A DNA stretch of 39,893 nt. Origin: a virus. The stretch is from the UHGV virus genome UHGV-0204626. One strand, 5' to 3'. Position 1 is the stretch's first letter. Each line of letters opens with the position of its first letter. Under the pieces are notes generated by a model, which saw only the letters and a list, made by a program, of their open reading frames with translations, was not told the DNA's origin and did not search any database. This document shows, in pieces, positions 10 through 39,893 of this stretch. Made by a program: the position numbers and the translations under genes.

Positions 10-1188
10 ATGGCTATAAGCGACACAAAACTGCGTACTATTTATGGTAAACCATATTCGGGCCCACAAGAAGTGGCTGATGCCGATGGCCTCAGCGTAC
101 GAATTTCACCGAAGGGGGTCATCCAGTTCCAGTACCGCTATCGCTGGCATGGCAAGCCTAATCGACTTGGGCTTGGTCGATACCCATCCCTGTCTTTGAA
201 GGACGCCAGACAGATCACTGCTGACTTGCGAAAGCTCTATTTCTCAGGAACGGATCCACGCACCTATTTTGAAGAGAAGGTGGAGAACTCCATGACGGTC
301 GCCCAGTGTCTCGACTACTGGTTCGACAACTACGTCTCTACAACTCTCAGAGAAAAGACCCAGGCACTTTACCGATCAACGGTTATGAAGCGCATGCATG
401 ACGCCTTTCCTAATCGTCCGGCATCTTCTATCACGGTTAAGCAATGGGTTGACCTGCTTACCGAAGAAGAAAGAGATAATCCACGCCGAGCAAGGCAGGT
501 GCTAAGTCAACTAAGATCAGCAATAAGTTGGTGCATGCGGCGTCAGTTGATAGATAGTTGCGCAATTATGAGCATCCAGCCAAGGGACTTCGGCTCACGC
601 GCTGAGGTAGGGGATCGGGTACTGTCGTATCACGAACTGGCTAAGATTTGGCTTGCTATTGAAAGAAGCCGTGCGTCTACGTCAAATAAGCTACTTCATC
701 AGATGCTTATGCTGTGGGGGGCGAGGCTCTCAGAGCTTAGGCTGGCAAAAAAGACAGAATTTGACCTGCTGGAAAACGTATGGACCGTACCGAAAGAGCA
801 TAGCAAGATGGGTAATGTTATCCGCCGTCCAATCTTCGAACAAATTAAGCCTTTCCTCGAAAAGGCCATGACAACGTACAATGATGTTCTTTTCCCTGGA
901 GAAGACATAAACAAACCGATCAGCATCGCTGCAGCCAACCGATTCGTAAATAGAATAAGGGGAGGGATGGATCTGGGTTACTGGCGAACACATGATTTCA
1001 GAAGAACGCTTGTTACACGTCTGTCCGAGATGAATGTCGAGCCTCATGTTACTGAGCGAATGCTCGGTCATGAACTTGGCGGGATAATGTCCGTGTACAA
1101 TAAACACGACTGGATAGAGGCTCAGCGCAAAGCGTATGAGCTTCACGCTGATAAATTGTTCTGGCACATCAGGAGCATTTCTGATTAA
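10..1188 (+). CDS. int: Tyrosine integrase (P4-like, with N-terminal arm-type DNA-binding domain)
   Basis: 392-aa ORF; N-terminus has the arm-binding domain pattern (GLSVRISPKG...FQYRYRWHGK...LGLGRYPSLSLKDAR) and the C-terminus has catalytic-domain motifs (HDFRRT...MLGHE...Y). It is the first gene in the window, as expected for a prophage or phage end. Confidence 0.9.
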   Translation: MAISDTKLRTIYGKPYSGPQEVADADGLSVRISPKGVIQFQYRYRWHGKPNRLGLGRYPSLSLKDARQITADLRKLYFSGTDPRTYFEEKVENSMTVAQCLDYWFDNYVSTTLREKTQALYRSTVMKRMHDAFPNRPASSITVKQWVDLLTEEERDNPRRARQVLSQLRSAISWCMRRQLIDSCAIMSIQPRDFGSRAEVGDRVLSYHELAKIWLAIERSRASTSNKLLHQMLMLWGARLSELRLAKKTEFDLLENVWTVPKEHSKMGNVIRRPIFEQIKPFLEKAMTTYNDVLFPGEDINKPISIAAANRFVNRIRGGMDLGYWRTHDFRRTLVTRLSEMNVEPHVTERMLGHELGGIMSVYNKHDWIEAQRKAYELHADKLFWHIRSISD

Positions 1189-1360
1189 CGCCACCGTTAA
1201 GAATCCACCCTTCAACAGCTTCACGAAGGTATGATTTGGGGTGGGTTCTGACTGGCTTCGGAAATCCGTGCCGTTTGGTATAGTTCCAGATTGTCTGACG
1301 TGATGAAACACCGAGCTTATTCATCACTTCTTTCTCAGGAATCAGGCTGGTATCGGTCAT
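1169..1360 (-). CDS. xis: Excisionase / AlpA-like helix-turn-helix DNA-binding protein
   Basis: 63-aa ORF convergent with int; the ...RHGFPKPVRTHPKSYLREAVEGWI pattern resembles AlpA/Xis-family HTH proteins. The true start may be the internal Met (MNKLG...). A hairpin plus T-run follows at about 1372-1395 on the minus strand. Confidence 0.55.
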   Translation of the reverse strand: MTDTSLIPEKEVMNKLGVSSRQTIWNYTKRHGFPKPVRTHPKSYLREAVEGWILNGGVNQKCS

Positions 1361-36807: not shown

Positions 36808-39225
36808 ATGACAGACATTACAGCCAATGTGATCGTATCAATGCCTTCGCAACTCTTCACTATGGCGCGTTCTTTTAAAGCAGTAGCCAATGGCAAAATT
36901 TATATCGGTAAAATTGACACTGACCCGGTAAATCCTGATAACCAGATTCAGGTCTATGTTGAGAACGAAGATGGTTCTCACGTTCCTGTTGCACAGCCAA
37001 TCGTCATCAATGCCGCTGGGTATCCAGTATATAACGGACAGATTGCCAAATTCGTAACTGTGCAAGGCCATTCTATGGCTGTTTATGATGCGTATGGTGC
37101 GCAGCAGTTCTATTTTCCTAATGTGCTGAAGTATGACCCTGATCAGTTACGTCAGCAATTAGAAGACCCATATGGTGCGGAAAAATACCCTGAATTACAA
37201 ATAGCCAGATGGATAGATGATGGAGATGTAAGGGGGTGGGGGTTAAAACCAGGCTATTATTTTGATAATAGTTCTGTATGGGAAAATCTGTTAAATTCTG
37301 GACGCAAAGATTTTGTTGTGCCTTCTGGTGTTTTCAGATTTTCTAACGGAATTGATATACCAGGAGACTTTAGATTTATAGGGCAGGGCTCTCCTATTCT
37401 TGGTTTTGGCACAGATGATGATAAGCATTTTTTGTCTGAAGGAATTAAGCAAAACATGCCGGGTTCATCATTTATATTTTCTGGAAAAGGGACAAAAGAA
37501 GCCACGGCGTACAATCGCAATGACCAATTTTCAAGCGTAAGGTATTGTGTGCGAGTTATGTCACCAGAGTATGGTTCTAGTGGAGCCGTATTACGTGGTA
37601 TTGCAATAATTCAGGACATGGTCTGCTTTGATGGTGATGGTATTCCAACAACCCCTAATAATGATATGCGTTCAGATTATGAGTGTGGTGTTTATTACGA
37701 CGACTCTGCAAGAAATCTTCAGGAGGATGTTTGTGTATTCGGATACTTTTCAAAAGCAGGTACAATAATTCAGTCAAAGCAAGGAAACGATGACCCTGAT
37801 TACAATACCATTACTGGTGGGTCAACTATGGGGAGAGTCGGTTTAGCAATTCTTGGTTCAAACACTGGGCCTGCAAGTTATGGTCTCAGCGGAACTAGAG
37901 TAGATAAATGTGGTATTTATACCCTTGATCACCACAGTCGTGCATCAATGTCTCATGAAGGGCTTGTTTCTTATTACTCTAGCGCAAACACATGGCGATG
38001 CCTTTATATAGATGGTGATGTTAATGCGACATCCGCTGAAATAAATGGGCATTACTTTTATGGCTGTGAGTTTAGAACCAGAGCTAATCATGCATTAGAA
38101 TTTGATCACGCATCCAACATCCAGTTTTATGGTGGCGTGGTAGAGCAATCCCCTTATGGTATTACAAATTCAGATATTCCGACTTTTATTGGTTCTGAGA
38201 ATGTAAAGAGAGGCGTTGGTTTTTATGGCGTGCGCATGAATTATATTTCTCAGATATTTAATGACAATTTTGCTGGAGTGATTCCTGTAAAAATAATAGT
38301 TTCAGGCGATCCGCTAAACGGTAGATTTGGAGTTGTAGGTAAAGACCCAGCAGGCGGTTATACCGTTGCAATTCTTGGCTCTGATGGGAATATTGGTGAC
38401 GCATCAATTCAGTTTACGAAGAATGCTGCTGATGGGTCTACAGGATGGAAAGTGATGATGGATGCAAGCTCCGACAGACTATTGGTCAGCAAGGATGGAG
38501 AAACCATGACGTCACTCACTGAGACAGGAATGTACACTGTATCGGCTCCATCTGGTTCTGATGCTATGCTTGGCCTGCTCAGTAATGGCAACGCTACATC
38601 TTGGTTCATGAGAACACAATACAACAGTGTAGGTCAATTACAGTTCAGACATGGTGGGTCTGGAGCTACTCCAGCAATGCAAATAGCAACATCAGGGGGA
38701 ATCACTCCTGGAGCTGATGCCACTTCAAATATAGGTAGCGCATCACTACGATATAACATTGGTTATTTTGCCGGAGGAACCCAGTCAAGCTCTGATGCAA
38801 GACTTAAGGATCCGATAAGAGAAATGACAGATTCTGAAAAGTCAGCAGCTAAAGAAATAGGAGAAATGATTGGGTTTTGGACATGGATTGATGATGACTC
38901 AAAGCGTTTGCATGCAGGAATAACAGTTCAATCAGTTATATCTGTATTAGAAAAACATGGATTAAATTGGAAGAATTATTCATTTATAGGTTTTGATGAA
39001 TGGGATGACATATATGATGATGTAGTTAAAGACATCGAAGTTGAAGATGCGAATGGTAATAAAAAAATAATATCGGTTAATTCTGGAGAGAAAAGGCTTG
39101 TAAAAAAAGCAGGGAATCTTTTTCAATTTAGAGACCAAGAATTAGACAGATTTATAATGAGAGGGTTATCAGAAAGGATATCTGATATTGAAGATTTATT
39201 GATTAAAAAAGTTATTAAACAATAA
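36808..39225 (+). CDS. Tailspike protein (P22 gp9-type head-binding domain, divergent receptor-binding domain, C-terminal chaperone-like domain)
   Basis: 805-aa ORF; the first ~110 aa ([43 protein letters not shown]...[13 protein letters not shown]...NVLKYDPDQ) match the P22 tailspike head-binding domain; the central region is Gly-rich (beta-helix-like); the C-terminal ~145 aa begin with [10 protein letters not shown]. Confidence 0.9.
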
Positions 39226-39278
39226 TACAACAACAAAGCTTTGCACTGGATTGCAAGGCTTTGTGCTCTTCGATAGTT

Positions 39279-39300
39279 AAGGTGGATCACTCCACCTTTT
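39279..39300 (+). terminator. Candidate terminator after the tailspike gene
   Basis: GGTGGA-tcac-TCCACC hairpin followed by TTTT (short T-run). Confidence 0.45.
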
Positions 39301-39597
39301 CATCAATCCAGTCCGCCCACCATTGCATCATTTCTCTGCGCTTAACGTAGCGGATGCCTCACTATCACACGGTGATGGTTCATTACTGCTTTGTAGAATG
39401 GATAGAGAACTGAGGATAAAAAGATATCCCAAAACCCCAAAATCTCATCTTTAGGATTTGCAGAAAGGGAGGTGTGAACAGATACCTGCGCATGAAGACG
39501 GAACTAGTCCAGATGTGATATTTGTGGTGATCACATACATCATCAACGATGCTCGTTATGGTGAGTTTGATGACTACCCGCTGAAGTGAAAATTGTG

Positions 39598-39893
39598 TTG
39601 TGTACCAAATTGCGTACCAAACTAAAATCACAAATCATGAAATCCTTGTTCATGGCGGTTCTCAGGGGTGTTGCGCGTAATCGTGAAAGAGGAAGGTAGG
39701 TTGCTTATCTGTGTCTGTCATTGTCTAGCATTGTCCACTGTAGTTAATTAACTGTCTGTTATAACTCGAAAAACAACCCTTTTTTCACCTGAGTATGTCT
39801 ACGAACGTCAAATATAGTTGTTTACTGTGCGCTGTTGTCCATGTGATATTGTGTACCAGATGTGTACCAAACCATTATTTCTGAGCGTACCAA
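39598..39893. repeat. Clustered 11-12 bp direct repeats TGYGTACCARA (candidate integrase arm-type sites / att region)
   Basis: TGTGTACCAAAT and TGCGTACCAAAC in tandem (39598-39621); TGTGTACCAGA, TGTGTACCAAAC and GCGTACCAA (39850-39893, running to the window edge). Confidence 0.5.

Follow-up and report, generated by a model that had tools for sequence, protein, structure and literature searches.

A phage 2851-type attachment site with putative integrase arm sites at the right end of a P22-like phage genome

At the right end of the 39,893-nucleotide genome UHGV-0204626, the whole of which we call the window, positions 39599-39893 together with position 1 very probably form the attachment site (attP) of a P22-like temperate phage carrying a 2851-type integration module. 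On this account the site would serve core exchange, binding of the integrase (Int) to repeated arm sequences, autoregulation of int and the rebuilding of the interrupted host gene sbcB. The site is real but ordinary, since an attP of this kind, the 'phage 2851 / sbcB' type, has been published before. Five direct repeats lie on the two sides of its core and, judged from their sequence, are most likely arm-type integrase sites. Binding by Int, autoregulation and the assignment of excisionase and promoter elements are what we infer for this module. The features on which the argument draws are listed here.

39338..39589, plus strand: decayed umuD-like (S24 peptidase) pseudogene, from translation, tblastn and the annotation of homologues
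39512..39541, no strand: the 'inverted repeat' GATGTGATATTTGTGGTGATCACATACATC of the original prediction, corresponding to codons PDVIFVVITYII of the umuD-like remnant
39599..39609, plus strand: P1, putative arm-type integrase site TGTGTACCAAA, from a pattern scan
39611..39621, plus strand: P2, putative arm-type integrase site TGCGTACCAAA, 12 bp after P1, from a pattern scan
39676..39688, plus strand: core (crossover identity) CGTAATCGTGAAA, 13 bp, common to host sbcB, a single exact match in the window
39689..39721, minus strand: phage-borne replacement sbcB 5' end, with its ATG at 39721-39719, encoding MTDTDKQPTFL
39797..39842, plus strand: GTYYAY-like direct repeats (GTCTAC, GTCAAA, GTTTAC, GTCCAT), candidate AlpA-like excisionase sites
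39836..39850, plus strand: conserved box TGTCCATGTGATATT, directly upstream of P'1, with the form GTCCATG.GATATTG in relatives
39850..39860, plus strand: P'1, putative arm-type integrase site TGTGTACCAGA, from a pattern scan and comparison
39861..39871, plus strand: P'2, putative arm-type integrase site TGTGTACCAAA, 11 bp after P'1, from a pattern scan and comparison
39884..39893, with the last base at window position 1, plus strand: P'3, putative arm-type integrase site AGCGTACCAA, from a shorter-pattern scan and comparison
10..1188, plus strand: tyrosine integrase of 392 aa with an N-terminal arm-binding domain, from Pfam
1169..1360, minus strand: AlpA/HTH_17-like small protein, probable excisionase (RDF), from weak Pfam hits and the annotation of relatives

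Attachment site, core and host gene

The stretch 39226-39893 follows the tailspike gene and leads into int across the window junction. In mEp234, the last repeat runs through 'atattattt' into the int start codon without a break; the junction being contiguous there, the window represents a circularly permuted genome that has been cut 9 bases ahead of int. The original prediction, which placed an attP region at the window end on the premise that the genome is circularly permuted at this point, is thereby borne out, and the start of int at position 10 was confirmed as well. By megablast, the region shows 94-97% identity with attP DNA of EC.P3, E212, mEp234 and Sf101, and its right-hand 370 bases are also found in HK140, HK544 and APC_JM3.2. 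The assignment of 39590-39893 as the attP region of the integrase is supported.

The core, CGTAATCGTGAAA, has one repeat cluster on either side and 205 bases between it and the window end; it does not lie across the window junction, a place that had been thought possible. The same 13-bp core has been published for phages 2851 and Sf101 (PMC4159516), and a 13-bp feature is annotated 'prophage attachment site (type 2851)' in the records of mEp234 and HK544. In the record of Stx2 phage 1717, the same 13 bp appear as the duplication of a prophage insertion, followed by host dacD. K-12 MG1655 contains the core once, at nucleotides 37-49 of sbcB, which constitutes attB, and this one 13-bp identity is common to attB, attL, attR and attP. 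The suggestion that the core would prove to be a tRNA 3' end gave way to this match to sbcB: a search of the whole window with ARAGORN gave neither a tRNA nor a tmRNA gene and, with sbcB as the target, a tRNA target was dropped. An Rfam search of 39150-39893 returned no family match, with one meaningless sub-threshold hit.

Host junctions were sought by comparing the int-proximal 254 bases with 5426 complete E. coli genomes. Of these, 586 carry this int-proximal arm fused to sbcB, and the match covers at least 80% of the 254-base query in 582. Among the matches listed, the match begins at query base 37, equivalent to window position 39676 and thus the first base of the core, under the sbcB annotation; the P arm together with the core was found beside dacD, that is, on the attR side. 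Because host DNA in lysogens starts only beyond the core (39676/39688), the repeats are phage DNA, and the possibility that they are host-derived flanking DNA, which the original prediction had named as grounds for rejecting it, is excluded. The joining of the window ends and the comparison with host genomes and prophage junctions that it had proposed yielded the 13-bp sbcB core, attL at 39676 and attR by dacD. Integration at sbcB is shown for near-identical modules, and from the closeness of sequence we infer it for the present phage.

Three E. coli chromosomes (NZ_CP040107.1, NZ_CP038309.1 and NZ_CP173115.1), two of which are labelled O157:H7, carry a complete attP-like sequence (99% coverage) plus junction copies, at four places in each record, which points to prophages in tandem or side by side at sbcB.

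In Pfam searches, Int shows an Arm-DNA-bind_3 domain at residues 4-85 (E = 8e-18) and a Phage_integrase domain (E = 1e-16), and over its first 77-85 residues it can be aligned with the solved arm-type binding domains 3jtz and 3ju0 (E = 2e-11 and 1e-7). Since it joins Arm-DNA-bind_3 to a catalytic domain and matches 3jtz and 3ju0, Int is taken to be heterobivalent and to need arm sites. It is 98.7% identical over 392 aa to the Int of phage 2851 (NC_049943) and 100% identical to the Int of a Stx2c phage. On the opposite strand, the AlpA-like gene converges on int so that their 3' ends overlap by 20 nt (1169-1188), an overlap also kept in mEp234, HK544, Sf101 and SEN34. The weak Pfam hits of its product lie below curated cut-offs (Phage_AlpA, E = 0.003); its counterparts in mEp234, HK544 and SEN34 bear the annotation 'AlpA family' or 'similar to excisionase'.

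The five repeats and the constancy of their arrangement

A pattern scan of the whole 39.9-kb window for TGYGTACCARA gave four matches, starting at 39599, 39611, 39850 and 39861, against 0.02 expected, and four or more matches occurred in 0 of 100 shuffles. Shortening the pattern to GYGTACCA brought in a fifth copy at 39885-39892 (GCGTACCAA being 39885-39893), which, when set in register with the others, extends by one base across the window junction to position 1. All five repeats are direct and on the plus strand (5/5). The original prediction of five copies of a motif in two clusters about 240 bp apart agrees with these four plus one copies and with the 239 bp measured, start to start, between the inner members P2 and P'1. 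The copies of GYGTACCAA thus stand on both sides of the core, two on one and three on the other, and are unlike the core in sequence. Measured at the GTAC, the P-arm sites stand to the left of the core start by 74 bp (P1) and 62 bp (P2), and P1 is 301 nt upstream of the start of int; on the other arm, the GTAC precedes the int start by 50 nt in P'1 and the start codon by 16 nt in P'3.

To follow the repeats among relatives of Int, loci were drawn from annotated phages, from a set in which a single genome stood for each species (80 loci, 42-100% identity) and from viral contigs. Within the 110 nt before int, a 5-mer present three times at spacings of 10-12 and 21-26 nt was found in 70 of 84 loci, compared with 1.0 loci in shuffled controls and none of 83 windows taken inside the int coding sequence. 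Counted from the start codon, the three P' GTAC sequences fall in nearly all loci at about -50, -39 and -15. The DNA around the sites diverges while their geometry stays, and the motif switches by clade between GTACC, GTACA and GTCC: GYGTACCAA is found in the present phage, Buttiauxella, some Pantoea and Tatumella; RAGTACA or GTGTACAGG in SEN34, argW-targeting Stx2a phages, Xenorhabdus, Providencia and others; and TGYGTCCAAA in Photobacterium and Vibrio. When 23 diverged P' arms from the sbcB-targeting group were aligned, 16 of the 32 columns within the P' sites, every GTAC included, proved at least 90% conserved. Columns conserved to this degree number 0 of 12 in the spacer between P'2 and P'3 and 3 of 114 in the remaining arm; in the box upstream of P'1 they number 5 of 14.

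Among Photobacterium, Vibrio and Aliivibrio loci (L064-L080; Int 46-49%), the three-site layout is kept with TGYGTCCAAA in place of the GTAC sites, and the first two sites are spaced 12 bp, not 11. A comparison of 90 distinct N-terminal domains showed that Int position 39 (window 124-126) is Q, L, N or R in company with GTACC and mostly T, S or A in company with GTACA. Residue 39 may be a specificity residue; it is the best position found, discriminates only partially and is confounded by phylogeny, and we regard it as a lead only.

The P-arm pair is 12 bp apart wherever an uninterrupted attP or attR is available. P1 and P2 lie at about -301 and -289 from the int start in the present phage, L094, SEN34, L120 and L148, and across four other attP forms the GTAC site in the P1 position, clade-specific in its sequence, ranges from -300 to -302 and that in the P2 position from -288 to -290. 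The integrases of these forms are related to the present Int at 61% identity in SEN34, which has the same core, 73% in L120 and 62% in L148, which has a different core. In the attR of VT2phi_272 and the right end of Kp4873-4, the pair is found at -77 and -65 from the core. Each element uses one motif, that of the P arm being that of the P' arm (GTACC here and GTACA in the other available forms), with the exception that P2 reads GTACT in VT2phi_272 and Kp4873-4. Because the same motif occurs on both arms in a fixed geometry with divergence between, arm-type integrase sites are the best reading of the repeats. Of the original claim that such sites flank a core, the part that concerns the sites stands, their position, number and cross-species conservation being as expected for putative arm-type sites; the accompanying guess about the location of the core does not.

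The viral contigs L148, L153, L159, L161 and L172 carry a sister integrase (~62%) with the positions of P1, P2 and P'1-P'3 unchanged. This L148-type integrase is associated with another core context, TTCGTAATCTTCGGCAAGG, and with another host gene at the junction, and the group looks like a target switch within one arm architecture.

The P' arm, a proposed mechanism and its rivals

Immediately right of the core, the phage carries a start for the gene that it interrupts. Read on the minus strand, 39689-39721 is ATG ACA GAC ACA GAT AAG CAA CCT ACC TTC CTC, after which the core follows, so that the substitute N-terminus with the core (...FHDY) is MTDTDKQPTFLFHDY, as against the native MMNDGKQQSTFLFHDY. 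In the lysogen NZ_OZ040539 (L173 422-1846), PGAP annotates a full-length sbcB, of which the first 46 nt are phage-derived. Across many genera, 27 loci are arranged alike, their FHDYET motif lying 204-222 nt away from the start of int. The phage rebuilds the 5' end of the interrupted sbcB and necessarily supplies the upstream region too; the expression of exonuclease I in such lysogens depends on sequence inside the attachment site. A substitute sbcB start lies beside related integrases (L010-L088) in Escherichia, Buttiauxella, Erwinia, Pantoea, Tatumella and Rosenbergiella, and was also seen in Xenorhabdus, Rahnella, Citrobacter, Gilliamella and Aeromonas, among others.

Further along the P' arm, the GTYYAY-like repeats become clearer in relatives, where by eye and by alignment they are phased at 10-11 bp (GTTCAC/GTTCAT/GTTCAT/GTTCGC/GTCCAT in L012; also L013 and L014). 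By analogy with described excisionase sites they could be sites for the AlpA-like protein, an assignment that we make with low confidence. The conserved box that follows is, from its sequence, a candidate for either an extended -10-like element of an int promoter (TGnGATATT) or the last excisionase site. A sigma-70 consensus scan of the P' arm found no promoter, and an IHF consensus scan found no site between the arms and the core; with up to one mismatch allowed, the IHF pattern WATCAANNNNTTR matched only at a place overlapping P'2, the background being 1.2 such matches per kb.

In the mechanism that we propose, strand exchange would take place within the 13-bp core at 39676-39688, which is identical to codons 13-17 of sbcB (exonuclease I). 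The Arm-DNA-bind_3 domain of Int would bind P1 and P2, 62-74 bp left of the core, and P'1-P'3, which lie 165-200 bp right of the core and end about 10 nt before the int start codon. With its C-terminal domain bound to the core, Int would shape the DNA into an intasome of the kind known from lambda, P4 and KplE1. As the P' sites would lie over the presumed promoter and 5' leader, int is probably negatively autoregulated, by analogy with KplE1 intS. Integration would exchange the first 11 codons of sbcB and the upstream region for the phage copy, leaving the gene intact.

An unlikely but not negligible alternative is that the repeats bind not the integrase but the AlpA-like excisionase (RDF) or some other regulator of int. 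RDFs of the AlpA-like type do bind several phased direct repeats near int, TorI having five sites in KplE1 attL (PMC3509656), and the AlpA-like gene always adjoins int and hence covaries too, so that covariation alone cannot fully separate Int sites from excisionase sites. Yet characterised RDF sites are confined to one arm, whereas the present repeats occur on both, as two plus three copies of the same motif; the GTYYAY family, phased at 10-11 bp and located between the core and the box like the TorI sites of KplE1, is a better RDF candidate; and Int is equipped with an arm-binding domain of its own, for which such sites are required. We consider it more improbable still that P'1-P'3 are only a transcriptional operator for int and the rebuilt sbcB, with a fortuitous P-arm pair and no architectural role. 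All three P' sites do fall within 50 nt before the int start, and autoregulation through such sites is documented (PMC2951348), but the P-arm pair is about 290 nt from int, across the core, and its position and motif are kept in seven independent attP or attR forms whose flanks cannot be aligned. That the repeats are chance matches, host flanking DNA or an assembly artefact of the window end, as their place at the very edge of the window might suggest, is refuted by the four matches against 0.02 expected and the absence of an Rfam family match, by the presence of the same sequence inside the genomes of mEp234, E212, Sf101, HK140 and HK544, and by host DNA in lysogens beginning only at the core. 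Arm-type integrase sites remain our preferred reading.

Left flank and relation to known systems

The right end, which had been called a non-coding region, is in part of coding origin: 39338-39589 is a decayed umuD-like gene. About 45 N-terminal codons of this remnant are missing, an in-frame stop lies at 39452-39454 and its own stop lies at 39587-39589, the translation in frame 2 being ...GDGSLLLCRMDRELRIKRY...HL*...PDVIFVVITYIINDARYGEFDDYPLK*. By tblastn, residues 46-129 of the intact UmuD-like protein of HK140 align across the stop codon of the remnant at 55% identity, and the label given in RefSeq and GenBank to the homologous stretch is 'S24 family peptidase', 'HumD family' or 'UmuD-like'. 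The pseudogene borders the functional attP and is no part of it. Its end lies 10 nt before P1, where HK140 and Klebsiella phage Kp4873-4 have intact homologues. The series of umuD-like gene, attP, int and AlpA-like gene looks like a travelling cassette.

The inverted repeat that the original prediction had placed at about 39510-39540 is the string GATGTGATATTTGTGGTGATCACATACATC at 39512-39541, which aligns to RPVFGVITYII of the HK140 protein. It comprises five plus three pairs round a 4-nt bulge, as well as an 8-bp palindrome, GTGATCAC. Its DNA fold of -4.4 kcal/mol is at chance level (z = -0.29; 69 of 200 shuffles fold at least equally well), and a repeat search did not report it. With a fold energy at chance and a coding origin, it was rejected as a hairpin or binding site and is not meaningful. 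The umuD-like remnant has an ORF of 82 aa antisense to it (39383-39631, minus strand), annotated in Sf101 as a hypothetical protein; this ORF is without family support and was treated as probably spurious.

Further left, the tailspike gene (36808-39225) matches Pfam Head_binding and Peptidase_S74, so that the tailspike is a P22-type head-binding domain joined to a C-terminal Peptidase_S74 intramolecular-chaperone domain. After its stop, 39233-39298 contains the hairpin repeats ACAAAGCTTTGCA/TGCAAGGCTTTGT and AAGGTGGA-tcac-TCCACCTT, the latter followed by TTTT. These hairpins are probably the terminator of the late operon; a terminator scan made no call there. Taken as a whole, the window is mosaic. 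CUS-3 and E212 come closest to it, and when the 24.9-kb segment 15000-39893 was searched, coverage stayed below 80% in every record.

The attP and its core are already known, and the module is a member of the published 'type 2851'. The type 2851 attP sites (Stx2c phage 2851, Sf101, mEp234, HK544, HK140 and Stx phage 1717) have the identical core CGTAATCGTGAAA, with Int 98.7-99.2% identical and attP DNA 94-97% identical to those of the present phage. They share the gene order of attP, int and a convergent AlpA-like gene, and the mEp234 sequence, like the present one, shows all five repeats. The present module differs in its setting, a P22-like (CUS-3/E212-like) mosaic genome in which it directly follows the tailspike gene, and in the decay of the umuD-like gene left of the site, which is intact in HK140. 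The type 2851 records and PMC4159516 name only the core (in HK140, a 147-bp 'putative attP') and not the arm repeats.

A more distant parallel is the KplE1/HK620 module (IntS, TorI and attL at argW). There, the arm-type P' sites overlap PintS and repress it (PMC2951348), and five TorI sites lie in attL between the core and PintS (PMC2951348, PMC3509656). In both modules int reads away from att, with the promoter region, here presumed, in the P' arm, and KplE1 has the same order of core, phased repeats, promoter region, P' sites and ATG (PMC2951348). The distance from core to int is about 213 nt here and 208-228 nt in autoregulated integrases (PMC2951348). The present geometry resembles that of autoregulation, with sites 16-50 nt before the start codon and a TGnNATATT-like box just upstream; no consensus promoter was found. 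The relationship is nevertheless remote: CUS-3-type argW integrases are about 22% identical to the present Int, and the arm motif differs, the P' sites of KplE1 sharing TAAA. The target in KplE1 is a tRNA 3' end and the target predicted here is the 5' end of a protein-coding gene.

Resemblance also extends to better-known tyrosine integrases. The attP of lambda divides its five arm-type sites between the arms as two and three. Lambda and the present module share a heterobivalent tyrosine integrase, a 2 + 3 set of arm sites and a short core common to attB, and Int aligns with the lambda Int structures 5j0n and 1z1b (E ~1e-6 to 1e-7). The present module departs from lambda in its arm-binding family, Arm-DNA-bind_3, which it shares with P4, HPI and CP4-57, in having int next to attP and directed away from it, and in its arm lengths; nor was an IHF consensus found. 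With the integrases of the HPI/HAI7 (CP4-like) islands (3jtz, 3rmp, 3ju0), only the arm-binding domain is common to Int, and those elements use tRNA genes.

The repeats were not described in the searchable literature: full-text matches came only from unrelated AFLP/MSAP adaptor papers, and a search on P4-like arm sites gave nothing on this module. What the analysis adds to the published type is the five-site map, the conservation and motif switching of the sites across a broad integrase clade and the substitute sbcB start in the P' arm. At the level of the genome the gain is routine, fixing the place of recombination in the host (sbcB), the permutation of the window and the identity of the 'non-coding' right end. 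For a system of a known kind, the comparison across relatives adds modestly to this. It does offer a testable arm-site consensus and a fixed geometry for a widespread clade that includes many Stx-converting phages, and natural specificity variants that are usable to study or re-engineer arm recognition by Arm-DNA-bind_3 domains.

A wider proposal seems to us possible, if rather doubtful. The repeats could be the arm-site code of a large clade of sbcB- and argW-targeting elements in Enterobacterales, Vibrionaceae and others, rigid in its 2 + 3 arrangement, with its motif switching possibly through beta-sheet residues of Arm-DNA-bind_3 such as position 39, and the P' sites could double as the operator of a divergent control region for int and the rebuilt sbcB. 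If this is true, prophage recombination proteins would set the expression of exonuclease I in about one in ten E. coli strains.
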